39,943 nt of DNA from Actinomycetota bacterium (lineage in GTDB: Bacteria > Actinomycetota > Humimicrobiia > Humimicrobiales > Humimicrobiaceae), in the NCBI GenBank assembly GCA_028697935.1, contig JAQVEM010000001.1:2475-42417 (forward strand), given 5' to 3'. This document shows positions 120-39,914 of the stretch, piece by piece. The notes below the pieces were generated by a model. The model was not told the DNA's origin. It saw nothing but the letters and a program-made list of their open reading frames with translations, and did no database searches. The position numbers were made by a program, and so were the translations under genes. Position 1 is the stretch's first letter. Each line of letters opens with the position of its first letter.

Positions 120-149
120 ATCTGCGTAATCAGCGAAATCTGCGTGAAA
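120..149 (+). repeat. Phased 7-mer array, ATCTGCG dialect (atctgcgtaatcagcgaaatctgcgtgaaa)
   Basis: Three 7-mers (ATCTGCG / ATCAGCG / ATCTGCG) spaced about 9-10 bp apart, ending in GTGAAA. The same unit recurs more than 15 times in the window in both orientations. Confidence 0.9.
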
Positions 150-242: not shown

Positions 243-420
243 ATCTGTGATATCTGTGCTATCTGTGAGAGGTTAACAAAAAATCTGTGATATCTGTGCT
301 ATCTGTGAGAGACCTTATCTGTGTAATCTGTGTAATCTGTGAGAGGTTAACAAAAAATCTGTGATATCTGTGCTATCTGTGAGAGACCTTATCTGTGATA
401 TCTGTGCAATCTGTGAGAGG
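243..420 (+). repeat. Tandem array of five ATCTGTG-dialect triplet units (higher-order period 74 bp, about 2.4 copies)
   Basis: Five units of (t)atctgtg x3 plus agag, with alternating spacers gttaacaaaaa and acct. Odd-numbered units start at 243, 317 and 391, giving a 74-bp period. All units have the same orientation. Confidence 0.9.
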
Positions 421-5602: not shown

Positions 5603-5890
5603 TTATAATTTTTTACTTATTAAATTATGATATATTTCTGATAGTTTATAGATTTGTCTATCTAAATTGAATTCTTTTTTTAGATATTCTCTGCTCCTTA
5701 ACCCTAAGTTAATTCTTTTTTCTTTATTATTTATAAGTTCTTCCATTTTATTAGCTATTTGCTCTATGCCTCTTTGCCTAACCAAAATGCCCCTTCTACC
5801 AAAATTTAGTACCTCTGGAATACCAGCATGATCAGTTGCAATACAAGGTAATTGCATAGCTTGTGCCTCCGTTAAAACCTCAGCAATCAC
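5603..5890 (-). pseudogene. C-terminal fragment of a GT-B (GT4-like) glycosyltransferase
   Basis: The 95-aa ORF begins with a GTG in the middle of the C-terminal domain (TEAQAMQLPCIATDHAGIPEV, the EX7E region). The N-terminal domain is absent. Its stop abuts the start of the CapA-like gene as an operon junction would. Confidence 0.75.
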
Positions 5891-9167: not shown

Positions 9168-9802
9168 TTACATAGCACGCATAATATTCTTAGTAACTTC
9201 CTTATAATTGAATTCGTTGTAAACAAGTTCTTTACCCCTCATACCGATAAGTTTTGCCAGCTTCTTTCTATTAACTAGCGTTTCATTTTTCTTCTCTCTT
9301 AAAACCGGTATCTCTTGCAGATCCGGCTCCGGAAAATAACTCGCCGTCTGTGATTCCTCCAGTGCTTCTGAATGTGTCACCAGAAGTGCCTTCGCAAAAT
9401 ATCGGTTCTCGCGCCGAAATTTGAAAGCATAAAATAACCCTACAAAAATAAATAATTCCAGCACAACTGACCCTAAAATCGTTCCCAGCACTATCATCCG
9501 AGAATAATGTAACTGATTGAATATATACATTAGCCCGAAAATAACCACTATCGCATATATATCGCACTTAATTATCTGACTCGCCAACTTAGATGCCTTT
9601 CCCACTTTTTGTAAAGAATACTTCCCACCTAATATACCCACTACTATCCATATCCCGGTAAAGGCAAAGAGAAAACGCCACCACTGAAAATCTGATAGTA
9701 TCCTCCTTGTTCACTCTTTTACCTTTGCCGCAAAAAGAAAGGCAATGACTACAAGAAGGATGTCTAAAAGAAGATAATAAATGGTAGTTTGATTTTTTTC
9801 AT
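9168..9802 (-). pseudogene. Chimeric remnant: disrupted N-terminal membrane domain (polyprenyl-phosphate sugar-phosphate transferase-like) fused to a glycosyltransferase-type C-terminal tail
   Basis: An ATG at 9802 opens MKKIKLPFIIFF and hits a stop. A shifted frame continues LDILLVVIAFLFAAKVKE(stop)TRRILSDFQWWRFLFAFTGIWIVGILGGKY into the 157-aa ORF 9168..9641. That ORF has TM helices and ends in KKLAKLIGMRGKELVYNEFNYKEVTKNIMRAM, a typical GT4 C-terminus. The 9280-9420 segment is locally GC-richer and also carries an overlapping alternative-frame ORF. Confidence 0.5.
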
Positions 9803-9812
9803 ATATTTTTAA

Positions 9813-10555
9813 TCTCACGCAGATTGCGCTGATTCCGCAGATAAGTGCTCTCACAGATAACACAGATTTTAGTTTACCTCTCACAGATTACACGGATAAC
9901 ACAGATAAAAATTTATAATAATAAGATGTTAATATTAGAAGAATTACCGCACGCAGATTGCGCTGATTACGCAGATTTCTTTATTTATGTTAAGAATATT
10001 AAGCACAATCTAAAATTCTGAATTTATCATAGTATATATTATTAAAACCAAAACTGGGCTTAGACATTTCCTTTGCGATTTCAAGAGAGTTAAAATTATA
10101 ATATATTATCAATCATCCATCTGCGTTATCTGCAAAATCTAAGTACTGTATATTTTCATCTCACGCAGATTAAAGAATTTATAATTATAACATTAATAAT
10201 CATCTAACACTTCAAGTATTTATCGCAGTTTATAGTCATTGAAATAAATCATTTGGCTCAGATATTTTTTATTAGATTCCAATATAGTTAAAATTATAAT
10301 GTTTAATAATCATCCATCTGCGTTATCTGCGATATCTGCGTGAAATATAAATAATTATGTTACAGATAACACAGATTATTGTTTTGTAATAAAAAGAGTT
10401 TAAAGTACTTTACTATAAATTAGATCCTCTTACCTTTTTAATTAAGCTATGAATTTTAGGGTAGGTAAAATATAACAAATTTAGATTATTTTGAATTCTT
10501 ATTATAATTAAATCCAATCTGCGGAATCCGCGTTTTTATCTGCTTAATCCGCGGG
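9813..10555. repeat. Composite repeat region: phased 7-mer arrays alternating with core modules M5, M3, M4 and M1
   Basis: Plus-strand order (R = array as CRCAGAT, F = array as ATCTGYG; c = C/G-type, t = T/A-type). R-c 9813-9842, R-t 9848-9867, R-t 9878-9906, M5 9907-9947, R-c 9948-9976, M3 9977-10118, F-c 10119-10140. Then R-c 10159-10170, M4 10171-10315, F-c 10316-10345, R-t 10363-10376, M1 10397-10506, and a degenerate F-c 10517-10555. No ORF of 60 aa or more. Confidence 0.9.
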
Positions 10556-10561
10556 AAAAAA

Positions 10562-11731
10562 TCATACAGGTTCATAGTAAGTATCCGGATCACCTGGATC
10601 ATAAAATTCATTAGTCCAGAACATTGTCAACAACTCCGTATCCCCTATATTAGTAATATTATGTGTAAACCATATCGGCATATCTACATAAGCAGGTTCA
10701 TTCCCATCCAAGATATATTCAATAACTTCAGTAGTTCCATATTTTCGTAATTTAATTGAAGCATTACCTTCAATAACGGCAAAGCGCTCAACTTTTCTAA
10801 GGTGGAAATGATTCCCTCTAATAATTTGTGGTTTAGTGGTTGAATAAGAACTTTGTCCCTTAGACACTGATTTTGCCCATTCTACATAAATACCTCTCTC
10901 ATCTGCATTGATTTTAAACAAACGAGGATAATTATCTAGTGGTATATAGGACCTAAAAGTATTAAAGAGACATAAATCAAAGTAATCACTTAATTCTGGA
11001 AATATGCTATTTTGGTAATACATCTCTTTAAATTCTTGAAGTTTCTCCAAAAGTTCTGAAACTTTATAACTAGCCTGAGATTTTATTTTTAATATCCTGG
11101 GTGGATAATTAAGATTATCTTCTCTAGATTTTCTATTATTTATTGTCTGTGCTAAACTACCATACTTTTCAATTAATTCTATAATAAAATTAACTAATTC
11201 ATTTACATAAATTAAATTCATTTGATTATCTATTTCAATCTTTGGTTCAAGATTATTAACAAGTTGATAGGAAAAGGTAGAAATCACAGAATTGTAGAAA
11301 GGAACTCCAAATGGTCCAAAAACATTAGGTATTATCAATCCTGTAAACATTGCATTGGTTTTATCAGCCCATTTATTTAATAGTTCTCTACCTTCTCGTT
11401 TTGATTTACCATAAGGATTATCAAGAAATTCTTGAAGAGAAGAACTCATAATTACATAAGGTCTTGAAGAAGTTCTTTCAAAAGCAGATATTAACTTTTG
11501 AACCAATTCTATATTCGTTTGATAAAGTACTTCTGGGTTAGAATGTCTATTCATTGCAGCGAGATGAACAATTACATCGCATTCCTTTATGAAAGATTCA
11601 AGCTTACTGGTTTCATTAAAATAATTATCTTCAAAGGGAATAAGAATAAATTTATCCTTAGATAAACTAAGGGTATTAAAGAGGTGAGTACCTATAAATC
11701 CAGATTTGCCTGTAATTCCGATTTTAATCAT
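10562..11731 (-). CDS. fnlB: CapF/FnlB-like bifunctional enzyme (N-terminal SDR domain plus C-terminal cupin domain)
   Basis: 389-aa ORF with an N-terminal Rossmann motif GITGKSGFIGTHL and a C-terminal cupin-like region (GNHFHLRKVERFAVIEGNASIKL). It lies directly downstream of an FnlA/CapE-like gene, as in UDP-L-FucNAc clusters. Confidence 0.65.
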   Translation of the reverse strand: MIKIGITGKSGFIGTHLFNTLSLSKDKFILIPFEDNYFNETSKLESFIKECDVIVHLAAMNRHSNPEVLYQTNIELVQKLISAFERTSSRPYVIMSSSLQEFLDNPYGKSKREGRELLNKWADKTNAMFTGLIIPNVFGPFGVPFYNSVISTFSYQLVNNLEPKIEIDNQMNLIYVNELVNFIIELIEKYGSLAQTINNRKSREDNLNYPPRILKIKSQASYKVSELLEKLQEFKEMYYQNSIFPELSDYFDLCLFNTFRSYIPLDNYPRLFKINADERGIYVEWAKSVSKGQSSYSTTKPQIIRGNHFHLRKVERFAVIEGNASIKLRKYGTTEVIEYILDGNEPAYVDMPIWFTHNITNIGDTELLTMFWTNEFYDPGDPDTYYEPV

Positions 11732-11756: not shown

Positions 11757-12791
11757 TTAATCATAAAAAGGATGTTTATCTCCTAATCCTAACTCCGCTC
11801 TTACATAATCTACTGTTAACAATTTTTCTTTTATTTCAGGTATTGTTAGTCTTTGAGTATTTTCGGAAGTATAATCTTGCACCTTGCTTACCTTTTGTTG
11901 TCCTTTTTCAAAATATATATCATAGTTTAAATCTCTTGTATCTGCAGGTATTCTATAATAACCTGGTAGTTCTATAGCTTTTGCCATCTCTTCTCTATTA
12001 ACCAGAGTTTCATGTTTCTTCTCTCCATGCCTGGTACCTATTATTTTTATTGTCGTTTTTGTTTCGAAGAGTTCTATCAACGCTTGAGCAAGATCTTGAA
12101 TAATACAAGCGGGAGATTTTTGTACAAAAATATCTCCTTGTTGTCCATTTTGATAAGCATAAATAACTAATTCAACTGCTTCTTCTAAGGACATTAGATA
12201 ACGAGTCATTTCAGGATCAGTAATAGTAATTGGTTTCCCTGATTTAATTTGCTCTATAAACAGAGGAATTACCGAACCTCGTGAAGCCATCACATTTCCG
12301 TAACGAGTTCCACAAAGAACTGTTCCGTTTTCAAGTTGCTGTCTGGAATAGGCAATCATAACTTTTTCCATCAGTGCCTTAGACATCCCCATAGCATTTA
12401 TAGGATACACTGCTTTATCCGTAGAGAGTACAATTAGCTTTTTAGCATTATTAGCAATAGCAGCCTTAATTACATTCTCTGCACCCAAAATATTGGTTTT
12501 AACAGCCTGAATAGGAAAAAATTCACAGGAAGGAACCTGTTTTAAAGCTGCAGCATGGAAAACATAATCAACGCCTAACATCGTATTATCAACGCTATCA
12601 TAATCTCTTACATCTCCTATATGAAACTTTATTTTAGAATTATCATAAAATTTCCGCATATCTTCCTGCTTTTTTTCATCCCGACTGAAAATTCTAATTT
12701 CTTTTATATCCGTATTCAGGAAACGATGAAGTACTGTATTGCCAAAGGAACCTGTTCCACCAGTAATCATTATTGTTTTATTTTCAAACAT
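11757..12791 (-). CDS. fnlA: UDP-N-acetylglucosamine 4,6-dehydratase/5-epimerase (FnlA / CapE family)
   Basis: 344-aa ORF with MITGGTGSFGN, IRIFSRDEKKQEDMRK, HAAALKQVPSCEF, LSTDKAVYPINAMGMSKALMEK, GTRYGNVMASRGSVIPLF and GTRHGEK. These blocks match my recollection of CapE/FnlA proteins closely. Confidence 0.85.
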   Translation of the reverse strand: MFENKTIMITGGTGSFGNTVLHRFLNTDIKEIRIFSRDEKKQEDMRKFYDNSKIKFHIGDVRDYDSVDNTMLGVDYVFHAAALKQVPSCEFFPIQAVKTNILGAENVIKAAIANNAKKLIVLSTDKAVYPINAMGMSKALMEKVMIAYSRQQLENGTVLCGTRYGNVMASRGSVIPLFIEQIKSGKPITITDPEMTRYLMSLEEAVELVIYAYQNGQQGDIFVQKSPACIIQDLAQALIELFETKTTIKIIGTRHGEKKHETLVNREEMAKAIELPGYYRIPADTRDLNYDIYFEKGQQKVSKVQDYTSENTQRLTIPEIKEKLLTVDYVRAELGLGDKHPFYD

Positions 12792-18293: not shown

Positions 18294-18362
18294 CTACAAA
18301 TTAGTCCACCAATTTACACAAATTAAGGAGAATCCACAAATTTACACAAATTAACACGAATT
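18294..18362 (+). repeat. Phased 8-mer arrays, CACAAATT/CACGAATT dialect (two triplets), left flank of GxxExxY gene 1
   Basis: The sequence is ctacaaatta GTCCACCAATTTACACAAATT aaggagaa TCCACAAATTTACACAAATTAACACGAATT. The period is about 10 bp, and the array runs into the stop codon of 18362..18739. Confidence 0.85.
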
Positions 18363-18739
18363 TATAAGATGAGGCGTTTATATACTAAACTTGAGGATCC
18401 AAAGTTGACTAATAAGCCAACTCTAAGTTTGGTAGCCTTTAGGTAGTTTAATAATTGAGAGATATGATCGTTAGAGATTTCTGCAAGAGCTTTTACTTCA
18501 ACAATTATATTATCAAAGCATAAAAAATCGGCTTTATAACATTTATCTAGGGTTTTCCCTTTATATACTATACGAATATCCTTTTCTTTTTCAAAAGGTA
18601 TTCCTTGCTCTAAAAATTCAAGCATTAAAGATTCTTGATATACAGCTTCAAGAAATCCCGGTCCCAATTCCTTATGAACATTCATACACGCTCCAATTAT
18701 CTTGTAGCATTCTTCTTTATACATAATATCATTATTCAT
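18362..18739 (-). CDS. GxxExxY protein (PD-(D/E)XK nuclease-fold, PDDEXK_3-like), copy 1
   Basis: 125-aa ORF with the family motif GPGFLEAVYQ (G-x-x-E-x-x-Y) and a downstream D...EVK (ADFLCFDNIIVEVKA) typical of PD-(D/E)XK cores. Confidence 0.85.
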   Translation of the reverse strand: MNNDIMYKEECYKIIGACMNVHKELGPGFLEAVYQESLMLEFLEQGIPFEKEKDIRIVYKGKTLDKCYKADFLCFDNIIVEVKALAEISNDHISQLLNYLKATKLRVGLLVNFGSSSLVYKRLIL

Positions 18740-18750
18740 AATTCAAGTAA

Positions 18751-18770
18751 AATTGTGCAAATTGGTGGAC
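18751..18770 (+). repeat. Inverted partner of the 18304-18321 motif (aattgtgcaaattggtggac)
   Basis: Its reverse complement gtccaccaatttgcacaa matches gtccaccaatttacacaa (18304-18321) at 17 of 18 positions. It lies between the GxxExxY start and the stop of the upstream gene. Confidence 0.85.
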
Positions 18771-19747
18771 TATAAATTATATATTCCCGGTTTATATTTG
18801 GCTAAGTTTCGTGGATCGCTGAACCACTCTACTGTTTTTTCAAGACCTTCTCTTAAAGGATATTGAGGTTCATAACCAGTTAGTTCTTTTATTTTGGTGT
18901 TATCACATCTTAATCTGAAGACTTCAGAATGTTCGGGTCTTAACCTTTGTTCTTCAACTATAAGATTTGCATCACTGTGCATTATATCTTTAATCAATGC
19001 AAATAATTCTTTTATAGAAATCTCATCATTTGAACCGATATTTACGGTTTCACCAATTGCTTTATCGCATTTAGCTAATAAAATAAAGCCATTACAAATA
19101 TCTTTCACATAATTGAAATCACGAGTTGGAGTAGTATCACCAATCTTAATTTCTTTATTTCCACTAGCAATTTGAGTGATAATTGTCGGAATCACCGCCC
19201 TGGCAGATTGACGAGGACCATAAGTATTAAATGGACGAACTATAGTAACAGGAAGTTGATAAGCATAATAAAAGCTCGTAGCAATCGCATCAGCACCAAT
19301 TTTACTGGCACTATATGGTGATTGAGGTTGCAATGGATGTTTTTCATCTATGGGAACATATTGTGCGGTACCATAAACTTCGCTGGTAGAAGTTACTAAT
19401 ATTCTTTTGACCTTACAATCTTTAGCTGCTTGACAAATATTCAAAGTGCCTTTGATATTAGTATCTATAAAGCTTTGTGGAGCAATATATGAATAGGGAA
19501 TAGCAATCAATGCAGCTAAGTGGAATATAACATCTATCCCCTTACAAATTTCTCTACAATATGCTGGATCTCTTACATCTCCACAAACAATCTCTAAATT
19601 AGAAGTTTGTTGAATATCTTCCAGCCATCCCCAGTAATTAAAAGAATTATATTGAGCTAAAGCTCTAACATCATATCCTTCCGCTAATAAAGATTCTGTT
19701 AGATGTGACCCAATAAATCCATCAGCTCCCGTAACTAAAACTTTCAT
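18770..19747 (-). CDS. NAD-dependent sugar-nucleotide dehydratase/epimerase (extended SDR, LegB-like 4,6-dehydratase type)
   Basis: Rossmann motif [12 protein letters not shown], then [11 protein letters not shown], and a catalytic YSASK. I use the ATG at 19747, which is preceded by AAGGAAG. The tracked GTG extension (VDRRKED) reads into the repeat motif. Confidence 0.75.
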   Translation of the reverse strand: MKVLVTGADGFIGSHLTESLLAEGYDVRALAQYNSFNYWGWLEDIQQTSNLEIVCGDVRDPAYCREICKGIDVIFHLAALIAIPYSYIAPQSFIDTNIKGTLNICQAAKDCKVKRILVTSTSEVYGTAQYVPIDEKHPLQPQSPYSASKIGADAIATSFYYAYQLPVTIVRPFNTYGPRQSARAVIPTIITQIASGNKEIKIGDTTPTRDFNYVKDICNGFILLAKCDKAIGETVNIGSNDEISIKELFALIKDIMHSDANLIVEEQRLRPEHSEVFRLRCDNTKIKELTGYEPQYPLREGLEKTVEWFSDPRNLAKYKPGIYNL

Positions 19748-19762: not shown

Positions 19763-20073
19763 GTCCACGAATTTTCACAAATTAGCACGAATTATTATAA
19801 TTATCTAAATTTATTATAATCCAATTTTGCTATTTAATTAATTCAACTTTGCCAAATCTCTCAAAACCCTTATTCCCCTTGACTTACATTGAGGACAGGT
19901 AACGACGAGTATGTCGTTTATTCTGGAAAGTATCCATCCGCTCTCTGTCCTTACCCTCTCAACATTCTCAATACATGTAAAGCTTCAGCACGCTCCGACT
20001 ACACAAATTTTTCAATCCTCTAATCCCCTTTCAACCTTCTCTATTTCGTGTTAATTTGTGCAAATTCGTGGAC
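19763..20073. repeat. 311-bp non-coding element bounded by ~31-bp terminal inverted repeats of the CACGAATT dialect (MITE-like)
   Basis: The left end is GTCCACGAATTTTCACAAATTAGCACGAATT (19763-19793). The reverse complement of the right end (20041-20073) is GTCCACGAATTTGCACAAATTAACACGAAATAG, with about 28 of 31 identical. The 247-bp core has no ORF and contains a GC-richer hairpin segment. Confidence 0.7.
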
Positions 20074-23405: not shown

Positions 23406-23489
23406 AGATGTGACCCAATAAATCCATCGGCTCCCGTGACTAAAACTTTCATATCTTCGTTTCTTCTGTCCACGAATTTTCACAAATTT
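23406..23489 (-). pseudogene. Third copy of the SDR gene 5' end (about 15 codons plus 37 bp of upstream leader including the GTCCACGAATTTTCACAAATT motif)
   Basis: About 81 bp match 19703-19783 with 3 mismatches. Two are synonymous, and one is in the Shine-Dalgarno region (aaggaag to aacgaag). Confidence 0.85.
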
Positions 23490-23501
23490 CCTAATTAAAC
23501 T

Positions 23502-23528
23502 TTCTCAACCTTCTCAACCTTTACAATA
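23502..23528 (+). repeat. Short phased array, TTCTCAACC dialect (period 9)
   Basis: The sequence is ttctcaacc ttctcaacc tttacaata. Related tctcaac/tctcaat pairs lie at 19957-19972, and a tttcaacct lies at 20029-20037. Confidence 0.6.
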
Positions 23529-23565
23529 ACATTCAAATACTATGAACATTTAAATAATCTCTTAA

Positions 23566-25126: not shown

Positions 25127-26120
25127 CTCTCACAGATTGCACAGATGACACAGATAAGGTCTCTCACAGATTACACAGATAACACAGATAAAAATTTATA
25201 ATAATAGGTTGTAAACATTAGCAGGATTACCTCACGCAGATTACGCTGATTTCGCAGATAAGTTCTCTCACAGATAGCACAGATATAATTTATAATTAAA
25301 AATATGTTCATTTACAATGCATTAATGTTTGTAGCTAAATTTTATAGCTTTTAAATTGATCAATTAGCTCAATTTATCTCACGCAGATTACGCTGATTCC
25401 GCAGATATGGTCTCTCACAGATTACACAGATATCACAGATTATAATTATAATAAGATTGTTAAAACTGTATCAATTAATTAAAATTGCGTCTTATCGGCA
25501 TATATTAACATTCCCCTTGAATTAATTTTTAAAATCAGAATAAGTTCTTAGAGCATTACCATTCTCTATTCTAAAAAACTAATAAGGGCTTTTTTAAATA
25601 ACCGTTAGTATAAACCATGTTTCTATTCCAGATAAAATTATCATATCCATCAATTTCATTATAAGTGTTTTTAAAGTAATTCTGAAGTTAATTCATTATG
25701 ACGGTAAGAAATAGCACAATTTACATTATACATTAATTCTTTTAATTTCACTATAAATCCTTATCTGTGATATCTGTGATATCTGTGTTATCTGTGTTAT
25801 CTGTAACATAATTTTTTATATTTCACGCAGATATCGCAGATAACGCAGATGGATGATTATAAATACATTATAATTTTAACTATATTGAATCTATTAAAAA
25901 ATATCTGAGCCAAATGATTTATTTCAATGACTATAAACTGCGATAAATACTTGAAGTGTTAGATGATTATTAATGTTATAATTATAAATTCTTTAATCTG
26001 CGGAATCAGCGTAATCTGCGTGCAGTAATTCTTCTAATATTAACATCTTATTATTATAAATTTATATCTGTGTTATCTGTGCTATCTGTGAGAGACCTCA
26101 TCTGCGATATCTGCGTGAAA
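25127..26120. repeat. 1-kb ORF-free composite repeat region between wzx start and the next gene's stop
   Basis: Left half, all R orientation: R-t 25127-25155, R-t 25161-25189, M5-like 25190-25229, R-c 25230-25259, R-t 25265-25284, inverted M2 25285-25376, R-c 25377-25406, R-t 25411-25440. A unique 322-bp centre spans 25441-25762. Right half: F-t x5 25763-25805, R-c 25821-25850, inverted M4 25851-25994, F-c 25996-26023, inverted M5 about 26024-26065, F-t 26066-26096, F-c 26100-26120. Confidence 0.9.
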
Positions 26121-27058: not shown

Positions 27059-27078
27059 TATTTATTCCTCAATTTATA

Positions 27079-27501
27079 CCTCACGCAGATTACGCTGATT
27101 ACGCAGATTTCTTTATTTATAATTTGAGTGTCAAACATAATCTAAAGTTCTGAATTTATCTATGAATATTGCCAATAATATCAATTAATAGTTGGTTTGG
27201 AGATTTCTTTAACGAATTCAAGAGAGCTAAAATTATAAAGCATTATCATTCATTTATCTGCGTTATCTGCGATATCTAAGCACAGTATATTGTCATCTCA
27301 CGCAGATTACGCTGATTTCGCAGATTAAAGAATTTATAATAAGAATTATAATCATAATCTAAAATCCCAAAGTATTTTCTTATAATTTTGTAACTATACT
27401 CAATTATATGGCCTAAAGCTTTTTAAAGATTTCACTACAGTTAGATTAAATTATTAAACATAAAAACATCCATCTGCGTTATCTGCGCTATCTGCGTGAA
27501 A
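27079..27501. repeat. Composite repeat region (R-c, M3 copy 2, F-c, R-c, diverged M4-like core, F-c)
   Basis: R-c 27079-27107, M3 27108-27255 (alignable to 9977-10118), F-c 27256-27277, R-c 27296-27325, a core 27326-27471 whose ends resemble M4, and F-c 27472-27501 (atctgcgttatctgcgctatctgcgtgaaa). Confidence 0.85.
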
Positions 27502-27511
27502 CATAACTAAT

Positions 27512-27907
27512 TTATTGAAGATCTGGATGATGAATATCATTTGCTACTCTTATTATATTGTCTTTGATTGAATCAGTATTGAAATTGATCAGAAAACCTA
27601 AAGGTTTCTTTGCTATTTTTAGATAAGTTATCAATTGCTTATAATGAACTGGTAATAATGTATCAACAGATTTCAATTCGAGGATTACTTGATCATTTAT
27701 TAAAAAATCAAGTCTGTACTGAATTCCAAGGTTAACACCTTTGTATAGAACTTCTATGGGAACCTGATTTTCTACTTTCAGACCTCTATTATTTAATTCA
27801 ATTAAAAGAGCTTGCGCATAAATATTTTCAAGCAAACCCGGACCTAATATATTGTAAACCTCAAAAACTGAACCTCTGATTTGATAACTTATATCATTCA
27901 AATTCAT
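27512..27907 (-). CDS. GxxExxY protein (PD-(D/E)XK nuclease-fold), copy 2
   Basis: 131-aa ORF with the motif GPGLLENIYAQ and a downstream LDFLINDQVILELKS (D...ELK). Confidence 0.85.
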   Translation of the reverse strand: MNLNDISYQIRGSVFEVYNILGPGLLENIYAQALLIELNNRGLKVENQVPIEVLYKGVNLGIQYRLDFLINDQVILELKSVDTLLPVHYKQLITYLKIAKKPLGFLINFNTDSIKDNIIRVANDIHHPDLQ

Positions 27908-27915
27908 TGTATTTT

Positions 27916-28225
27916 TCTCACGCTGATTACGATAATTCTATTTTTCATTTTATTTCACGCAGATTACGCTGATTTCGCTGATTTTTTTACTTATAATAAG
28001 AATATTCAAAATAATCTAAATTTGTTATATTTTACCTACCCTAAAATTAATAGATTAATTAAAAAGGTAAGAGGAGCTAATTTATAGTAAAGTACTTTAA
28101 ACTCTTTTTATTACAAAACATTAATCTGTGATATCTGTGCAATCTGTGAGAGGTGAAAAAAATCTGTGTTATCTGTGCAATCTGTGAGAGACCTTATCTG
28201 CGTTATCTGCGAAATCTGCGTGAGA
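27916..28225. repeat. Composite repeat region (degenerate R, R-c, inverted M1, two F-t units, F-c)
   Basis: Degenerate tctcacgctgattacgat 27916-27933, R-c 27953-27982 (tttcacgcagattacgctgatttcgctgat), inverted M1 27991-28103, F-t 28122-28153, F-t 28162-28193, F-c 28194-28225. The tracked plus-strand ORF 27881..28087 simply reads through these repeats. Confidence 0.9.
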
Positions 28226-29518: not shown

Positions 29519-29548
29519 AAAAAGCCACCTAAATTCCCGAAAAATAGT

Positions 29549-29917
29549 TTAATGGGCAATTCTCTGGAATTCTAATTTTGCCACATTGCCAAAGTTTAAG
29601 ATATATCCTACTTTGAGCCCTGTTGCACTTAGATAATTTATTATTTGTGCGCAATGCATTGAATGAATTATATTACAAGCTTTGAGCTCCAGTATAATTT
29701 TACCTTCTACAATAATATCAGCAATATAATCTCCAACAATTTGATCTCTATAAAAAACTGGTATAGGAACCTGATAAACATAACTAATACCTTGATATTT
29801 AAATTCTACACATAAAGCTCGTTCATATACTTTTCCCAAATATCCGGCACCCAGCTCTTTGTGAACAGCAATTGCACAACCAATAATTCTATCACTCAGC
29901 TCCTTCTCATATATCAT
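29549..29917 (-). CDS. GxxExxY-family protein (PD-(D/E)XK fold), copy 3, with the signature Glu replaced by Gly
   Basis: 122-aa ORF that aligns with copies 1 and 2. Its motif reads GAGYLGKVYE (G-x-x-G-x-x-Y), while the D...ELK block (ADIIVEGKIILELKA) is retained. Confidence 0.8.
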   Translation of the reverse strand: MIYEKELSDRIIGCAIAVHKELGAGYLGKVYERALCVEFKYQGISYVYQVPIPVFYRDQIVGDYIADIIVEGKIILELKACNIIHSMHCAQIINYLSATGLKVGYILNFGNVAKLEFQRIAH

Positions 29918-29950
29918 AAATTTTGGGCTTTCCCTTTCTTATTTTAAAAA

Positions 29951-30424
29951 TTATATAACCTTTTCGGTGTCTTCGGTGCTATCGGTGGCTAATATTTTTG
30001 TATTGTAAATTACCTTTCGGTGCTCTAGGTGTTTTCGGTGGCTAATAAAAATAAACAGCAGAGTCAATATTGCTCCAAAGAGATTCGCTATCATATCCAT
30101 AGGATTAAAGGTTCTATAAGGCAAGAGATATTGTAAACATTCACTGATTATAGCAGAACCGCCTACAATTAGTATATATTTCAAAACAGATTTATGATTA
30201 AAAATTGGATTGCCTTGCCTTTCCGCTATCAAATATAAAGGGATAAAGACAAGAAAAGATACAAAATGAATAAGATAATCCAATCTAAATTCAAATATAG
30301 ATTTGTGAATGATACGATTTAAATCATCTCCCAAGGGAATAACATTCATTGCTAAAACTATAATCAGCCATCCCCAAAATAACCATCTTGCCCCATTTGC
30401 CATCCTTTTATCTTGTATCATCAT
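29951..30424 (-). CDS. VanZ-like family membrane protein
   Basis: 157-aa ORF with 4 TM-like segments. It has DYLIHFVSFLVF and SECLQYLLPYRTFNPMDMIANLFGAI, resembling VanZ-family blocks. The last ~30 codons are encoded by the TTCGGTG arrays. Confidence 0.6.
   Translation of the reverse strand: MMIQDKRMANGARWLFWGWLIIVLAMNVIPLGDDLNRIIHKSIFEFRLDYLIHFVSFLVFIPLYLIAERQGNPIFNHKSVLKYILIVGGSAIISECLQYLLPYRTFNPMDMIANLFGAILTLLFIFISHRKHLEHRKVIYNTKILATDSTEDTEKVI
29961..30043 (+). repeat. Two phased triplet arrays, TTCGGTG dialect, separated by a 22-bp spacer
   Basis: 7-mers ttcggtg / ttcggtg / atcggtg start at 29963, 29972 and 29981. 7-mers ttcggtg / ctaggtg / ttcggtg start at 30016, 30025 and 30034. The period is exactly 9, and each triplet ends in GGCTAAT. 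Confidence 0.9.
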
Positions 30425-30434
30425 TATATTTTTT

Positions 30435-30542
30435 TCTCTGTGCTCTCAGTGGTTAAATTTTTGTCGGTGTATTCGGTGTTCTCGGTGGCTAATATTTTTG
30501 TATTGTAAATTACTTTTCGGTGCTCTTGGTGTCTTCGGTGGC
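30435..30542 (+). repeat. Second copy of the TTCGGTG double-array module plus a ctctgtg/ctcagtg pair
   Basis: 7-mers start at 30435 and 30444, at 30462, 30471 and 30480, and at 30515, 30524 and 30533 (period 9). The internal spacer gctaatatttttgtattgtaaattac is the same as at 29988-30013. Confidence 0.9.
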
Positions 30543-31658
30543 TTCTTCTTTTTTCTCAAACCATTCATCAAGTACTTTTACAATTCTGCTGGCTGTCTTT
30601 CCATCCCAATATTTAGGTATTTTCCCCTGTTTTACATTCCCTTCAATAATTTCCCTGGCACTATTAACGATACTTTCCACATTCAAGTCAACAAGATGAT
30701 TGGTACCTTCTGTAACGGTTATCGGTCTTTCCGTATTTTCTCGTAAGGTTAAACAAGGAACACCAAAATAGGTTGATTCCTCTTGAATACCTCCCGAATC
30801 TGTTAGGATAAATTTTGCATTCATCTCTAACTTGAGAAAATCTAAATATCCTAATGGCTCAGTAATAATAAGATTTGAACTAGTATTTAAAATAGATGAT
30901 AAACCAAGTTCATAAATATTTTTCCTCGTTCGGGGATGCATAGGAAAGATAATCTTTATTTTTCTCCCTATGATTTCCAAAGAGGTTAGCAACATTTTTA
31001 AACCTTCATACTCATCAACATTAGATGGTCTATGTAATGTTACTAAGGCATATTTTTCATTAGGTACCATATTTAATTGGTGAAAAATATTAGAATTTTC
31101 AGCTTTATCTTTATGTGCGACCAGAGAATCAATCATAATATTTCCCACAAAATAAATTTTACCTGGCTCTATACCCTCTTTTTCCAAATTTTTATTTGCA
31201 TCCAGCGAAGGTGTTAATAAAATATCGGATATTCTATCTGTTAGAACTCTATTTATCTCTTCAGGCATTCTATCATCATAACTTCTTAGACCCGATTCAA
31301 GATGAGCTACAGGAATATATAATTTCTTAGCCACTAAAGCACAAGCAATTGTAGAATTAACATCACCTGCAACAATAACTAAATCAGGTTTATCCTCTGA
31401 TAGAATCAAATCTTCATATCGTTCTATTATCCTGGCTGTCTGTTTCCCCTGTGTGCCTGAACCTACATTTAAATAGGCAGATGGCTCAGGCATAGCCAAA
31501 TCATTAAAAAAGAGTTTGGACATTTGTTCATCATAGTGCTGTCCTGTATGTATTATCTGGGGTTCATATCTATTACTATACAACGATAATTTTCTATAAA
31601 GAGGTGCCATTTTCATAAAATTAGGTCTTGCACCCACTATCAAATGAATTAATCTCAT
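30510..31658 (-). CDS. wecB: UDP-N-acetylglucosamine 2-epimerase (non-hydrolysing, WecB family)
   Basis: 382-aa ORF with VGARPNFMKMAPL, HTGQHYDEQMS, GDVNSTIA and HLESGLRSYDDRMPEEINR. The last ~11 codons (EEATEDTKSTEK) are encoded by the repeat array. Confidence 0.85.
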   Translation of the reverse strand: MRLIHLIVGARPNFMKMAPLYRKLSLYSNRYEPQIIHTGQHYDEQMSKLFFNDLAMPEPSAYLNVGSGTQGKQTARIIERYEDLILSEDKPDLVIVAGDVNSTIACALVAKKLYIPVAHLESGLRSYDDRMPEEINRVLTDRISDILLTPSLDANKNLEKEGIEPGKIYFVGNIMIDSLVAHKDKAENSNIFHQLNMVPNEKYALVTLHRPSNVDEYEGLKMLLTSLEIIGRKIKIIFPMHPRTRKNIYELGLSSILNTSSNLIITEPLGYLDFLKLEMNAKFILTDSGGIQEESTYFGVPCLTLRENTERPITVTEGTNHLVDLNVESIVNSAREIIEGNVKQGKIPKYWDGKTASRIVKVLDEWFEKKEEATEDTKSTEK

Positions 31659-31732: not shown

Positions 31733-31766
31733 TCGTTTGTCTCGTTTGTCTCGGTGGCTTCGGTGG
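31733..31766 (+). repeat. Phased array, TCGTTTG/TCGGTGG dialect (4 units, period 9)
   Basis: Units tcgtttg, tcgtttg, tcggtgg and tcggtgg start at 31733, 31742, 31751 and 31760. The array lies between the DUF354-like stop and the wecB start. Confidence 0.85.
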
Positions 31767-31768
31767 CT

Positions 31769-32851
31769 TCATTTAAATATACCAAAATCAAAATCCTTTG
31801 CCTTAACCTCTTTTACCGATTCAGGATAATTTTCTATAAACCAAACCCAGAATGCTGTTACATCAATTTTATCTTGAAGAAGTTTCTCTCTCTTTTTTTG
31901 CCATTCTTCTTTTAAATTAGGAAGTTCCAGAAATTCTTTTATTCTATAAAGCATCCAATCAAATTGAGAAGGATGATAACCAATGGTTAAACCGTATTTC
32001 AATTCTAATTCCTCCAAAACTGCCAATCTATTAGCAAAAGTATTACAACGAAATGAAGGGACTCCTAATACAGCTGCTTCTATAGTCATAGTTTGCGAAT
32101 CAGATATTAGCATTTGAGCATAATATAAAAAAGTATGTATTTCATCAGCTGCTATTGGCATTCTGAATTCAGCAAATTCTGGCTCTAATTCTGTTTCCGT
32201 CGTTATAAATACTTTCCCATATTTAGAAAGAGTATCTATCAAAATATGTTTTTGTTCTTTATTTAAGCCATATTCGTGAATATCATGATGAGCTTTAAAA
32301 GCATTAAACCTTAATATAAAATATTTATTCTCTTCATTTAATCCATATTTTGTCAGGATACTGGGATCAGGTGTAAAATTATTAGGATGTAAATAAGCAA
32401 GTTCATGATAACCAGGATAATATATAGCATTTTTGAGATTTTCATAACTTAGAACATCTGGTGATAGAATATGATCTACATAAGGAGAAACAAACTTTGC
32501 TGTAAATGGTTGAACTGCCTGGTCATCTTCATCCAATAATATTGATTTAGCCTTAGTTACCTTTGAGGCAAAAACTAATAATGAAGCGCCAATTACTATA
32601 TCTATTTCTTTCTCTTTTATAATATTCTTTACCTTACGATTAAAACTAAATTGTTTAATAATTTTCTCTCTAATATTTTTGCCCTTCTCGCCAATTTCAA
32701 TATAGGGTATCTGATAGGTATTTAATAGATTTCTTACTATTGGAATAGATTGACAAACTACGGTTAAATTATGATTATCCTTTAATCTATAATACAAATT
32801 TTTAATGTTATGAAAATGGGCAGGATGAGCTATACCAATTAATATGTTCAT
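31769..32851 (-). CDS. DUF354-family protein (predicted glycosyltransferase-like)
   Basis: MNILIGIAHPAHFHNIKNLYYRL matches the DUF354 N-terminal block (I-x-I-x-HPAH-x-H-x-F-K). I start at the ATG at 32851. The tracked 15-codon extension uses TTG and overlaps the preceding pseudogene tail. Confidence 0.6.
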   Translation of the reverse strand: MNILIGIAHPAHFHNIKNLYYRLKDNHNLTVVCQSIPIVRNLLNTYQIPYIEIGEKGKNIREKIIKQFSFNRKVKNIIKEKEIDIVIGASLLVFASKVTKAKSILLDEDDQAVQPFTAKFVSPYVDHILSPDVLSYENLKNAIYYPGYHELAYLHPNNFTPDPSILTKYGLNEENKYFILRFNAFKAHHDIHEYGLNKEQKHILIDTLSKYGKVFITTETELEPEFAEFRMPIAADEIHTFLYYAQMLISDSQTMTIEAAVLGVPSFRCNTFANRLAVLEELELKYGLTIGYHPSQFDWMLYRIKEFLELPNLKEEWQKKREKLLQDKIDVTAFWVWFIENYPESVKEVKAKDFDFGIFK

Positions 32852-37859: not shown

Positions 37860-39821
37860 TCAAACAATTACCTCTCCTTTCACCCAGCCCTCTTCTGGAT
37901 TAACTTCGGATATGATTAATTTAACTGAGTTATGCAGTGGTAAAATCTCCTCTGATTGGAGGAAGATATGTTTATCCCAATTAGTTATTTCAACTAGATA
38001 GCCATCTGTCATAGAACGGATAAGGATGGCATTAAGGGGTTGCTGAAGATATTTTCTCTGAAGAAAGCAAAGAAACCAATATTGTTCACTACGAGCAGCT
38101 ACAGTATGCAAATATAAAACTCGTTCTTCTATTACAGGTATTATAGTTCTCAATTCATCAGCAGAAAAAGGCGGTTTTCCCTTTTTTAGCAAAGCTTCAA
38201 ACTGAACTTGATTGATGATATCAGTAACCCTTCGGATCGGAGAAGTACTATGCAGATAGGCTTTTGAGCCAATTCCAGGGTGAAATCCTGCCTCAGTAGA
38301 AAGAAAAACCTGGTAATAATTATTAGAATCCTCATTCCAACCTTCTTCGTATTGAGCAATATTCCGGTAAATGCAGGGAAGTCCACTCGCAGAAGCGTAT
38401 TCAGCCAGAAAGCGATTATAAAGCACCATCAGTTCTTCAATCAATAAGCGGGAAGGACTATAAAAATCAATACATTCCATCATCAGTTCGCCATTTTTAC
38501 AGACCACATTCCATTCATATCTATTTTTCCCATTACTCTCAAATATCTTATGTCCTTGATTAATATTCCGCACTAACTGAAATAAAGATGAATGCTGGTT
38601 GTTACTTAAATAGCTATCCATATCTTTATAACTGAGGTTTTGTTTCACGCAGATATATTCTGATTTAAATTCCTCTTTTTGAATTTTGAATTGGTTATCC
38701 AAAAACAGATATAAAGACAGCACCTTTCTATTTTCTCCTGCTTTTAGACTGAAAACATCACTGGAAAAGGATGGCGGAAGCAAAGGAATAGTTTCGCAAG
38801 GAAGATATAAAGAGCTAACTCTTTCGCAAGCTTCGTTAAATACAGGAGAATTTAGAGGAAGTTGACCTCCTACATCACTGATATGAATACCCAAAATCCA
38901 TCCCTGCTTAAACTCTTGAAGTGAAATGGCATCATCATAATCGGGAGAATCTGCTGCATCTATAGTAAAGGCATCCAGATTTGCTATATTTTGTCTGCTG
39001 GATTTCTGCTTCAATTCAGCTTGCAATTTCCTCGCTTCTTCCAGCACTTCAGCACTGAAATTTATCGGAATGCCACTATCAGCAGCTATCTTGTCCGTAT
39101 TAGGAGATATATCACCCAGAAGCAAACGAATATTTCTGATTAATGTTCTCAATTTCTGATCGTTACTAAATTTACGGAGAATTTTTGCCAGGTCTTTAGG
39201 TGTGTTCCAACGAAGTAATTCTCTTAGTTCAGCAAGGAATCTTGTTCTGGATTCAGGTGCAAGTGAGGGAGAAATTTGATATTTTATGGTTGAAAAAGAA
39301 TACAGAGAAAGCAAAATATCCAGGTTAGCTTGCAGAAACCTTTCCACTTCTTGTAGAAAAATAGCTCTTTCTTTTGTTTCTGCTTCTTTTTTAAGGTATT
39401 TTAGGCGTTCTTCTTCATTGCGAAAAGAAAAGACCCCCTTTTTGTATTTAAGAAGGTCTTTTCTTTGCAAAATAAGCAAATAAAGGGCAAATCGTTCTAA
39501 ATCATCCTTATCTCCAAGATAGGAGTTTGCCTCATCAAAAGTGAAAGATTCCTTTCTTTCTTGCAATTGCTGAAGCCAAATTTCGCCTTGTTCTTCCATT
39601 TTAAATCTTATTTTATCCTTCAAATCCTTCAAAGTGTTAGAGGATAAAGGTTCATAGCATTTATCCGAAACAAGGATAAATCGTGCAGAAGGTAAAATAT
39701 AGCTTTCGCCCTCTTCACTTAGCACCTTCCAGTGTTTATTCTCTATCCCAGTTATTATGCCAAAATGGAGGTTCCCGTCCTGATAGAAGAGAACTATTTT
39801 CCCTATTTTAAGATTGACCAT
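37860..39821 (-). CDS. RNase II / RNase R family 3'-5' exoribonuclease (RNB domain)
   Basis: RNB motifs DAFTIDAADSPDYDDAISL and HSTSPIRRVTDIINQ. The start is set at Met18 (ATG 39821, AAGGA 5 nt upstream), because the tracked TTG extension is the tRNA gene read in frame. Confidence 0.85.
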   Translation of the reverse strand: MVNLKIGKIVLFYQDGNLHFGIITGIENKHWKVLSEEGESYILPSARFILVSDKCYEPLSSNTLKDLKDKIRFKMEEQGEIWLQQLQERKESFTFDEANSYLGDKDDLERFALYLLILQRKDLLKYKKGVFSFRNEEERLKYLKKEAETKERAIFLQEVERFLQANLDILLSLYSFSTIKYQISPSLAPESRTRFLAELRELLRWNTPKDLAKILRKFSNDQKLRTLIRNIRLLLGDISPNTDKIAADSGIPINFSAEVLEEARKLQAELKQKSSRQNIANLDAFTIDAADSPDYDDAISLQEFKQGWILGIHISDVGGQLPLNSPVFNEACERVSSLYLPCETIPLLPPSFSSDVFSLKAGENRKVLSLYLFLDNQFKIQKEEFKSEYICVKQNLSYKDMDSYLSNNQHSSLFQLVRNINQGHKIFESNGKNRYEWNVVCKNGELMMECIDFYSPSRLLIEELMVLYNRFLAEYASASGLPCIYRNIAQYEEGWNEDSNNYYQVFLSTEAGFHPGIGSKAYLHSTSPIRRVTDIINQVQFEALLKKGKPPFSADELRTIIPVIEERVLYLHTVAARSEQYWFLCFLQRKYLQQPLNAILIRSMTDGYLVEITNWDKHIFLQSEEILPLHNSVKLIISEVNPEEGWVKGEVIV

Positions 39822-39838
39822 ATAATCCTTTATATCTA

Positions 39839-39914
39839 TGGCGCCCCAGAGATGATTTGAACATCCGACCAACGGTTTAGGAAACCGCTGCTCTATCCTC
39901 TGAGCTACTGGGGC
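39839..39914 (-). tRNA. tRNA-Arg (anticodon CCT/CCU), CCA encoded
   Basis: The minus-strand 76-nt sequence is GCCCCAG TA GCTC AGAGGATA GAGC A GCGGT TTCCTAA ACCGT TGGTC GGATG TTCAAAT CATCT CTGGGGC G CCA. It folds into a canonical cloverleaf with a 7-bp acceptor, 4-bp D stem, 5-bp anticodon stem and 5-bp T stem with a TTCAAAT loop. Confidence 0.9.

Follow-up and report, generated by a model that had tools for sequence, protein, structure and literature searches.

Phased repeat arrays in a polysaccharide gene cluster are probably the inverted arms of small GxxExxY gene cassettes

The intervening sequences (IVSs) of 23S ribosomal RNA (rRNA) are among the closest described systems to the elements studied here. 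In Coxiella burnetii, the IVS of 23S rRNA helix 45 is a selfish element that carries an S23p (four-helix) open reading frame (ORF) in its loop; its terminal inverted repeats make a stem of 28 bp at which RNase III excises it, and its 5' arm holds three tandem GACAGAT heptamers whose copy number varies between strains (PMC4990558). Here we describe arrays of short phased repeats in a 39,943-nucleotide stretch of DNA from an Actinomycetota bacterium (the whole stretch is called the window below), among them the densely repeated region at positions 9813-10555. Sequence comparison indicates that these arrays are very probably the terminal inverted arms of small cassettes built around genes of the GxxExxY family, and of gene-less derivatives of such cassettes. 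The cassettes are probably selfish and, as far as could be found, their class has not been described outside rRNA. A literature search found the 16-mers of the arms in no paper, and none of the papers naming GxxExxY, PF13366 or TIGR04256 is, judged by titles and abstracts, about flanking repeats.

The window elements and the rRNA IVSs are both small, carry an ORF in the loop that can decay, and are regarded as selfish and horizontally spread. Both have terminal inverted repeats, a stem of ~27-28 bp and about three tandem short repeats (GACAGAT in Coxiella, CACAGAT or CGCAGAT here). They differ in that the window elements lie in mRNA operon junctions and not in rRNA helices, and in that their cargo is an apparent PD-(D/E)XK nuclease instead of an S23p/four-helix ORF. 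The repeats are spaced at 9 bp (7+2) here, whereas the heptamers of the IVS are contiguous, and there are many gene-less and solo copies here. The window holds no rRNA, and its elements lie between protein-coding genes. Rfam covariance models run on the window return only a transfer RNA (tRNA) above the gathering score and, at E < 1, just weak microRNA-like chance matches.

Three ORFs of the window, G1, G2 and G3, belong to the GxxExxY family (PF13366, PDDEXK_3; TIGR04256), with scores of 137-144 bits against the first profile (cut-off 22) and 134-150 bits against the second (cut-off 35). Their mutual identity is only 33-40%, and each has arms in a dialect of its own: CAC(A/G)AATT with a period of 10 on both sides of G1, CGCAGAT for G2 and CACCGA for G3. 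Orthologues hold the dialect (loci compared with the window carry L numbers): that of G1 in the close relative L122, that of G2 in L122, L126 (Candidatus Cloacimonas acidaminovorans) and L210, and that of G3 in L126. Homologues 76-98% identical to G2 are named from Cloacimonadaceae, including Ca. Cloacimonas acidaminovorans. A paralogue-specific dialect within one genome that is kept in the orthologue is cleaner evidence than a test on protein identity, which is 57.7% where the dialect is shared and 50.8% where it is not; the gap was matched in 0 of 500 permutations and is confounded by phylogeny. Within a single cassette, the 7-mers of one arm and those of the other agree at 6.05 of 7 positions, as compared with 5.1 of 7 between cassettes, and position 6 of the 7-mer is A in 200 of 203 units.

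The same layout recurs around distant relatives of G2. A metagenome scan gave 80 loci with 45-63% identity to G2, and 75 genes, all from unrelated metagenomes, were used for counts in the flanks. In nearly all loci an outer CTCAC, TTCAC or CCCAC leads into phased C-R-C-N-R-A-N units, 0-40 nt separate these from the ATG, and the stop is followed by an inverted arm ending in GTGAG. At least two phased 6-mer copies are found upstream of 52/75 and downstream of 55/75 genes, as compared with 286 of 2146 background windows (13%); at least three copies are found in 15/75 and 24/75, as compared with 21 of the 2146. This phased 6-mer test replaced a strict detector of period-9 triples, which scored 22/75 of the GxxExxY flanks and under-counts because the spacing ranges over 8-11 nt and copies are degenerate. 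Convergent arms enclose the GxxExxY gene in 56 cases, and it falls outside them in 7; the cassette shares the orientation of the upstream neighbour in 56 of 64 cases and that of the downstream neighbour in 52 of 60. For instance, the order in Bacteroides finegoldii is radA, an arm (TCAC CACAGAGGA CGCAGAGGA CACGGAGGA), the GxxExxY gene, an inverted arm (CTCTGTGAC CTCTGTGTC CTCTGTG GTGA) and the gene of a flavin adenine dinucleotide (FAD) protein. In a Bernardetia record, the cassette has ade on one side and a guanylyltransferase gene on the other. Across phyla, the nuclease genes are bracketed by arms, and dialect tracks paralogue.

The repeats of the window form a grammar of phased 7-mers. The window has a G+C content of ~29%, and its genes form a polysaccharide-biosynthesis cluster lying nearly all on the minus strand. 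When every dialect is mapped, 39 arms with two or more phased cores are counted (2-4 phased 7-mers each, usually three); 37 of the 39 are intergenic, while ORFs take up ~80% of the window, and restriction to intergenic DNA, proposed as a test of the repeats, is borne out. The original prediction, made from the letters of this DNA, had placed the repeat units where we find them and counted roughly 35 of the ATCTG(C/T)G types, 7 of TCGGTG, 6 of CACRAATT and 2-3 of TCTCAAC; the mapped numbers are near these (~30 plus ~5 degenerate, 4-6, 5-6 and 1-2, respectively). Allowing up to two mismatches, ATCTGYGNNATCWGYGNNATCTGYG has 29 matches in the window as compared with 0 in 100 dinucleotide-preserving shuffles. 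A scan that assumes no dialect detects 48 triple arrays of period 9 where shuffles give 3.8, and two period-10 arrays, both of the CACRAATT type, with periods 7, 8, 11 and 12 at background level. The 7-mers are spaced at 9 bp, and at 10 bp in the CACRAATT type, as had been read. The same prediction put the three sites on one face of the DNA, which needs correcting: a turn of B-DNA is ~10.5 bp, and since 9 bp falls short of it each site is rotated by ~50 degrees, so that the three do not strictly share a face. The general form of the 7-mer is 5'-C(A/G)C-N-R-A-N, and arms are 25-29 nt long and come in inverted pairs.

Read in the direction of the genes, a decorated spacer runs from a stop through 1-3 C(A/G)CAGAT arms, an AT-rich core and 1-3 ATCTG(T/C)G arms to an ATG. 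Arrays adjoin five stops (10562, 26129, 27512, 28231 and 18362) and three starts (25110, 27058 and 19747), as first noted; they do so because cassettes occupy operon junctions, and not because host transcript ends are marked. The arms, elements and cassette genes of the window are the following (letters A to E stand for dialects).

1-110, no strand: AT-rich core of the K3 family, truncated where the window begins; the core recurs at 10385-10500 and, as reverse complement, at 27990-28110, with ~95% identity.
120-144, minus strand: arm of the A1 sub-dialect, CGCAGAT-TT-CGCTGAT-TA-CGCAGAT.
243-415, minus strand: five tandem B arms (CTCTCACAGATnnCACAGATnnCACAGAT) with AAGGTC or T-rich linkers.
9168-9641, minus strand: truncated N-terminal Bac_transf fragment, directly downstream (in gene direction) of 9813-10555.
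9818-9906, plus strand: three arms, A1 at 9818-9842, a two-unit B at 9852-9867 and B at 9882-9906, antisense to the genes.
9952-10140, no strand: gene-less element M3, with an A1 arm at 9952-9976 (plus), core at 9977-10111 and degenerate A2 arm at 10112-10140 (minus); a second M3 copy lies at 27072-27290.
10150-10340, no strand: gene-less element M2, with a truncated A arm (CTCACGCAGAT) at 10150-10172 (plus), a core and an A2 arm at 10316-10340 (minus); M2 copies lie at 27290-27505 and 25820-26030 (reverse complement).
10362-10555, no strand: gene-less element with a K3 core, made of a B remnant at 10362-10378 (plus), the core at 10385-10500 and degenerate A arms at 10506-10555 (minus), which stop 7 nt short of the stop codon at 10562.
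18306-18361, plus strand: two D arms (CCAC(C/A)AATTTACACAAATTA; period 10) right after the G1 stop, forming the 3' arm of the G1 cassette.
18362-18739, minus strand: G1, GxxExxY/PDDEXK_3 putative nuclease gene, 125 aa.
18745-18770, minus strand: arm at the 5' side of the G1 cassette (gene-strand sequence GTCCACCAATTTGCACAATTT); the orthologue in L122 has the same arms.
19766-20069, no strand: gene-less D element, with an arm at 19766-19792 (plus), 19 nt upstream of the ATG at 19747, a core and an arm at 20053-20069 (minus).
23471-23529, no strand: D remnant at 23471-23487 (plus) and an E array, GTTGAGAAG, at 23491-23529 (minus).
25131-26115, no strand: 1-kb spacer packed with arms, AT-rich cores between them; on the plus strand B 25131, B 25165, A1 25235, B 25269, A1 25382, B 25416 and A2 25826; on the minus strand four to five B arms at 25763-25805, A1 25996, B 26066 and A2 26100.
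27084-27496, no strand: two tandem gene-less elements, A1 at 27084-27108 (plus) with A2 at 27256-27280 (minus), and A1 at 27301-27325 (plus) with A2 at 27472-27496 (minus).
27512-27907, minus strand: G2, GxxExxY putative nuclease gene, 131 aa.
27916-28220: degenerate arm at 27916-27935 (plus), A1 at 27958-27982 (plus), K3 core at 27990-28110, B arms at 28124-28148 and 28162-28186 (minus) and A2 at 28196-28220 (minus), which finishes 10 nt from the stop at 28231.
29525-29546, plus strand: degenerate 3' arm of the G3 cassette (GCCACCTAAATTCCCGAAAAA).
29549-29917, minus strand: G3, GxxExxY putative nuclease gene, 122 aa.
29963-30040, minus strand: two C arms (AGCCACCGAnnCACCGAnnCACCGAAAAGG), the 5' side of the G3 cassette; the VanZ ORF runs into them.
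30464-30545, minus strand: two more C arms, between Epimerase_2 and VanZ; the upstream ORF runs into them.
31733-31770, minus strand: C-like arm (CACCGAAGC CACCGAGAC AAACGAGAC...).

The region 9813-10555 is composed of three gene-less elements in tandem with extra arms. In relatives, G2/GxxExxY cassettes precede an intact Bac_transf gene at the position that matches this region. The two copies of M3 have arms that are 93% and 83% identical and a mid-core that is 66% identical; here the arms are indeed better conserved than the DNA between them, as had been claimed, but this is not a general rule, the other core families having copies that are ~95% identical. The two ends of an element are distinguishable. 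Relative to host transcription, the 5' arm is A2 (CGCAGAT-AN-CGCAGAT-AA-CGCAGAT) and the 3' arm is A1 (central CGCTGAT). The gene-less elements of the window share the end polarity of the G2 cassette, in both species, and the A1/A2 asymmetry and a central T-T mismatch are retained between species.

Comparison of orthologous junctions shows how cassettes come and go. In L122, the stop of VanZ directly abuts the next ATG, where the window has two CACCGA arms, G3 and an inverted arm (30043-29525); the whole unit 29525-30043 is absent in L122. Arms and gene are thus gained or lost as one unit. In a second example, the junction between Por_Secre_tail and MOFRL has identical flanks in two loci. L126 holds an arm, ~3.5 GxxExxY cassettes and an arm, and L216 (L216:5085-5207) holds an arm, TTAAAGA, the final 48 nt of the ORF (..DNIIRIANDNNHPDLK and the stop) and an arm. 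The L216 unit is an internal deletion of an L126-type cassette array at the AAAGA microhomology. Therefore, at least some gene-less arm-core-arm hairpins are cassette derivatives akin to miniature inverted-repeat transposable elements (MITEs), and the gene-less copies, arm-core-arm hairpins and solo arms alike, are MITE-like. We rejected the idea that the cores of the window are themselves decayed GxxExxY genes, as they have no residual ORF similarity. Cassette copy number and position vary between Cloacimonas strains, and the copy number of the arm repeats differs between the window, L122 and L126. In a final example, L135 and L136 have the cassette and the downstream gene in common and differ upstream, and their homology begins at the outer TTTCAC of the arm; the cassette boundary coincides with a recombination breakpoint.

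The arrays also occur far outside this locus, and confinement to it, which had been named as counting against the prediction, is not the case. We find arms in at least 120 loci of species-representative genomes; the figures given here and below for these loci and for viral contigs refer to the matches listed. The genome loci range in G+C from 34 to 73%, and genome and viral loci together from 24 to 73%. The phyla include Planctomycetota, Acidobacteriota, Chloroflexota, Verrucomicrobiota, Bacteroidota, Cloacimonadota, Cyanobacteria, Desulfobacterota, Gemmatimonadota, NC10, Spirochaetota and others, with no Firmicutes among the genome matches listed; one actinomycete and one gammaproteobacterial match look like a chance match in a coding region and a variable-number tandem repeat. 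The same arm design is found between genes in more than a dozen bacterial phyla. The unit common to these phyla is (A/T)(T/A)CC-[C(A/G)CAGAT-NN]x3, often with a T-run after it. Sense arms follow a same-strand stop in 64 of 102 cases, at a median of 27 nt, and the distance to downstream genes is larger. On the 3' side, 60 of 133 exact arms (~45%) have an inverted same-dialect partner within 250 nt, as compared with 5 of 129 (~4%) on the 5' side. Loops between paired arms are mostly 0-165 nt, and for about half of the perfect arms no partner can be detected. No gene family is enriched among the 61 ORFs that neighbour the arms in these loci; the neighbours are ordinary housekeeping genes. Gene-less hairpins and solo arms of the same dialect follow the stop codons of arbitrary genes in many phyla. 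Exact arms are also present in at least 120 IMG/VR contigs (L222-L341), including giant-virus bins (GVMAG), 28% of them with an inverted partner; these counts do not distinguish viral DNA from host flank.

We next consider the protein. The alignment of G2 has an invariant D67, E77-x-K79 and Q91-xxx-Y95 in addition to the GxxExxY motif, and the AlphaFold (AF2) model of G2 has a mean confidence (pLDDT) of 93. Its best fold matches in the PDB are Cas4 SSO0001, lambda exonuclease, LHK-Exo and the nuclease domains of AdnAB, with modest TM-scores of 0.4-0.56. Given the intact motifs and the confident fold model, the GxxExxY protein looks like a minimal RecB/Cas4-like PD-(D/E)XK nuclease that is apparently catalytically competent. 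None of the solved structures matches GxxExxY by sequence, PADLOC and PHROG gave no convincing match to defence systems, and the cassette has no DDE, HUH, serine or tyrosine recombinase. The family is large, with 17,006 clusters at E <= 0.001 in a 50%-identity library. A survey of PD-(D/E)XK proteins lists the function of GxxExxY as 'Unknown' and its distribution as 'multiple transfers, mixed clades' (PMC3424549). Among plasmids, a homologue is present in just 7 of 72,556 records; the two that were examined (L220, L221) contain housekeeping genes and look like chromosomal fragments. No cargo other than GxxExxY was recovered between arms of matching dialect, and four long loops in the cross-phylum loci hold no convincing gene.

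We propose that the arrays are the arms of IVS-like cassettes, that the cassette nuclease binds them and that they form an RNase III-type stem in transcripts; taken whole, this is the statement we lean towards. The cassettes occupy operon junctions in the orientation of their neighbours, wedged between one gene's stop and the start of the gene that follows. The three phased 7-mers of an arm would be duplex-DNA sites for a sequence-specific protein, the likeliest being an oligomer of the cassette's own RecB/Cas4-like nuclease, which might recognise both arms and then cut or trigger recombinational copying. Cassettes and gene-less derivatives would be spread or kept in trans, as REPINs are by RAYT transposases (see below) or MITEs by a transposase. 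In the transcript of the host operon, the arms would pair into a ~27-bp stem of the type that RNase III cleaves in rRNA-borne IVSs, and such a stem would make the insertion tolerable. Its parts differ in strength: that the arrays are cassette arms is very probable, belief and doubt are evenly poised for the predicted stem, and binding of the arms by the nuclease, predicted from patterns of conservation, is more tentative.

What speaks for a protein reading the DNA is the way the arms vary. The 7-mer, present about three times per arm at a fixed spacing, is retained across ~50% protein divergence, across phyla and over a G+C range of 24-73%, and the spacers of paired arms often differ. Mismatches between the arms of a pair are G-U in 70 cases and A-C in 86 where transcript polarity is known, and 52 versus 74 in another count, so that the excess of G-U over A-C that would be the signature of RNA pairing is absent in both. 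Together with the conserved mismatch, the end asymmetry and the unpaired arms, these are features that binding of a protein to duplex DNA predicts and pairing alone does not. Because dialects diverge between cassette lineages and are uniform within a cassette, the binder would most simply be the cassette's own nuclease. We infer that sequence-specific recognition is the favoured reason for the repeat grammar and that the RNA stem is a likely consequence of it in transcripts, the two not being exclusive. A more far-reaching version, which we hold to be doubtful, makes the GxxExxY proteins the sequence-specific enzymes of an unrecognised and very widespread class of mobile elements: the nuclease would read three phased 7-mers per arm, with the dialects as its code, and spread the cassette together with hundreds of gene-less pairs, the four-helix genes would be a parallel cargo class and the rRNA IVS a special case.

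Several findings weigh against this proposal. No target-site duplication is visible at the L216/L126 or window/L122 junctions, among which there is no exact pair of empty and filled sites, and we found no such exact pair between near-identical genomes. An empty G3 site was not found in a near-identical strain, the close relatives all carrying the cassette, and the Bacteroides and Bernardetia junctions likewise show no target-site duplication, there being no exact empty/filled pair to compare. Apart from its nuclease fold, the GxxExxY protein contains nothing recognisable as a DNA-binding domain. By tblastn and hidden Markov model searches, 118 of 120 genome loci with exact arms have no GxxExxY gene nearby, the two exceptions in the cross-phylum set having one 14 and 42 bp from an arm, and no GxxExxY gene is present in any of the 120 viral-contig loci (986 kb). 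The co-variation of dialect and cargo could come from simple linkage, because arms and gene are inherited as one unit. Finally, the near-identical heptamer of Coxiella and the architecture shared with four-helix genes argue for a common factor other than the cargo, or for a role at the RNA level. We had considered an obligatory adjacency of arm and GxxExxY gene and rejected it on the figures of 2/120 genome and 0/120 viral-contig loci; the link runs from gene to arms and not from arm to gene.

The four-helix genes bear on the question of a shared architecture. Although none is present in the window, genes of the four-helix bundle family (PF05635, the 23S rRNA IVS protein) are bracketed by inverted arrays of phased short repeats in several loci, with arm dialects TTTTGGCG/TTTTGACG, GGTTAT(G/T), GTTCAAGA and GGTAGAA, a period of 7-9 and from 3 to more than 10 copies.

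L347:360-960 and 1640-2150: four-helix cassettes.
L135:4050-4620: four-helix cassette.
L136:3810-4650: four-helix cassette.
L144:500-1170: four-helix cassette.
L149:660-1350: four-helix cassette.

The four-helix IVS-protein genes and the GxxExxY genes have one design in common, a small ORF placed in a loop between inverted arms of phased repeats, and the rRNA IVS looks like a special case of it that is sited in rRNA. This shared design across two unrelated cargo families would also suit a purely RNA-level, IVS-like explanation, in which RNase III cuts the ~27-bp arm stem and so excises or insulates the cassette RNA, or processes or stabilises the flanking cistrons; the dialects would drift with each cassette lineage, and spread would come about by ordinary recombination or horizontal gene transfer and need no cassette-specific enzyme. 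We regard this as rather unlikely, though it survives best among the alternatives. The Coxiella IVS is an experimental precedent of the same design (PMC4990558). Co-orientation with both neighbours (56/64 and 52/60) means that the cassettes are co-transcribed, exact arms find partners convergently (60/133 on the 3' side and 5/129 on the 5' side), and arm-core-arm units, with their arms paired, are predicted to fold far better than shuffles do (z = -5.6 and -3.1). The fine structure of the arms fits it less well. A stem has no need of an internal three-fold periodicity, the spacers of paired arms are often mismatched and the central T-T mismatch is conserved, and G-U pairs are not above A-C at known polarity (70 versus 86). 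Selection for pairing alone would allow compensatory drift, whereas the 7-mer stays constant over ~50% protein divergence and across phyla, and no partner is detectable for about half of the perfect arms.

Transposable elements with complex ends offer other comparisons. Mu and Tn7 are terminal-inverted-repeat elements with several subterminal transposase-binding repeats. The cassettes resemble such transposons and MITEs in having inverted ends with multiple phased sites, left and right ends that can be told apart (here A2 and A1), gene-carrying and internally deleted copies, and presence/absence polymorphism. They differ in that the 125-aa nuclease is not a known transposase, that no integrase and no target-site duplication is seen, and that the insertions are co-oriented in tight gene junctions. 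The Foldback (FB) transposons of Drosophila have long inverted ends of tandem short repeats and a variable loop that sometimes carries genes; inverted ends of this make and a variable loop are found here as well, but FB elements are eukaryotic and far larger, with unrelated sequences and enzymes. The seg and mob genes of phage T4 are free-standing homing endonuclease genes in phage operons. Like them, the GxxExxY gene is a small nuclease gene, co-oriented between conserved genes and patchy in relatives; unlike the cassettes, they have no inverted arms and no gene-less derivatives.

Repetitive extragenic palindromic (REP) sequences, their doublets (REPINs) and REP-associated tyrosine transposases (RAYTs) make up systems reportedly described by Nunvar in 2010 and by Bertels and Rainey in 2011. 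The parallel is close in some respects: an enzyme gene is flanked by its own cognate inverted repeats, several repeat families in a genome each have a paralogue, and many intergenic doublets and singlets lie at gene 3' ends. In other respects the systems part: the enzyme is a PD-(D/E)XK nuclease here and an HUH Y1 transposase in RAYT, the arms are triple direct repeats and REPs single palindromes with a GTAG head, and one dialect spans phyla here while REPs are species-specific. It is improbable, in our judgement, that the arrays are themselves REP/REPIN-type elements moved by a Y1 (RAYT- or IS200-like) transposase or another third-party recombinase, with the GxxExxY genes as passengers in hairpin loops. 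The doublets and singlets at gene 3' ends and a nested arrangement of arms would suit such elements. At L126:8380-8530 and 12020-12360, four dialects are nested like the layers of an onion, mirrored at both sites and running from outside to inside as CGCAGAT, a GGAT/AAAATCC type, CACCGA and TTTGAAC; it looks as if new elements were inserted into the centre of older ones. A Y1 transposase gene is also at hand in the same cluster in C. acidaminovorans and L217. This gene has different hairpins of its own (GGGTTTCAACCC...) and lacks 9-mer arms, the arms themselves are triple repeats in direct orientation and not GTAG-headed palindromes, and GxxExxY is the sole cargo recovered between same-dialect arms, whose dialect tracks the GxxExxY paralogue. 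The Y1 gene itself is of the IS200/IS605 family (insertion sequence; L126:12360-13010 and L217:3217-3546), lies in the same polysaccharide cluster, is variably present among Cloacimonas strains and is flanked by hairpins (AAGTCCCATCGGGACGACAG...GGGTTTCAACCCGGTGAA) unrelated to the 9-mer arms.

We give equally little credence to a domesticated host function, in which nuclease and sites benefit the host through transcription-replication conflicts, through 3'-end processing or as recombination hot spots that shuffle polysaccharide loci. The placement of sense arms 2-30 nt past same-strand stops (64/102, median 27 nt), the recombination breakpoint at the cassette boundary of L135 and L136, and the density of cassettes in variable polysaccharide loci are what such a function would lead one to expect. 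Against these stand a patchy presence in close strains, frameshifted copies and deletion derivatives that look like decay, and a phyletic spread that is itself patchy, with multiple transfers between divisions (PMC3424549). Least probable are host regulatory sites, operator- or iteron-like, through which a host transcription or replication factor would control the polysaccharide genes or mark transcript ends: the phased direct repeats adjoining starts and stops and the better conservation of the M3 7-mers fit, but the same arms stand beside unrelated housekeeping genes in many phyla with no neighbour family enriched, they bracket GxxExxY genes wherever those occur, they are missing together with the cassette at the orthologous L122 junction, and promoter-like matches are at shuffle frequency with no rep gene or origin in the window. 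The iteron- or operator-like reading of the original prediction survives in one half: sequence-specific recognition by a protein best explains the conservation of the 7-mers, while host operators of the polysaccharide genes do not fit arms that are gained and lost with the cassette and recur beside housekeeping genes.

The cassette proposal has several consequences. It gives a first, testable functional lead for the large GxxExxY/PDDEXK_3 family, as a dialect-specific DNA context hints at the target of the nuclease. The origin and spread of 23S rRNA IVSs would be tied to elements of ordinary operons, which form a far larger population. Much of the repeat DNA between genes in Planctomycetota, Acidobacteriota, Chloroflexota, Verrucomicrobiota, Bacteroidota, Cloacimonadota and others would be accounted for, and cassette boundaries match recombination breakpoints in variable surface-polysaccharide loci.

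Signals of other kinds are scarce around the arrays. Sigma-70-like promoter matches in the region are no commoner than in shuffles, no rep gene or origin lies in the window, and terminator-type matches in 9600-10600 are two trivial ones, not above shuffles. We rejected an intrinsic terminator because the T-run follows the first arm, inside the loop, and not the completed hairpin. The Bac_transf fragment at 9168-9641 is 45% identical to L126:10432-12030, and its place beside the repeat region suggests a past rearrangement at the arms. A 95-aa fragment at 5603-5890 is, by eye, like the C-terminal end of a glycosyltransferase. At the right edge of the window, a tRNA-Arg (CCT) at 39839-39914 on the minus strand overlaps the annotated start region of a 670-aa ORF (37860-39872). 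A further repeat type, (TTTAGATG)GTTGAGAAGGTT, occurs at 23491-23529 of the window and at L122:13149-13286, with up to four ~30-nt copies in L122 and no associated gene in view; these repeats may belong to the four-helix-type class of arms.

The arms are also a source of annotation errors. In some frames they have no stop codon, so that automatic annotation produces artificial ORF extensions and gene fusions. For instance, the VanZ ORF (29951-30424) ends in ...HRKHLEHRK...ATDSTEDTEKVI and Epimerase_2 (30510-31658) in ...ATEDTKSTEK, and at L347:514-1671 a four-helix gene is joined to a 257-aa protein. Many proteins of 250-295 aa in the 50%-identity library have two GxxExxY matches and may be further fusions. 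Most metagenome contigs with these GxxExxY genes do not reach 2 kb (in the case of P0064, 66 of 111 blocks), which is consistent with arm repeats breaking short-read metagenome assemblies.

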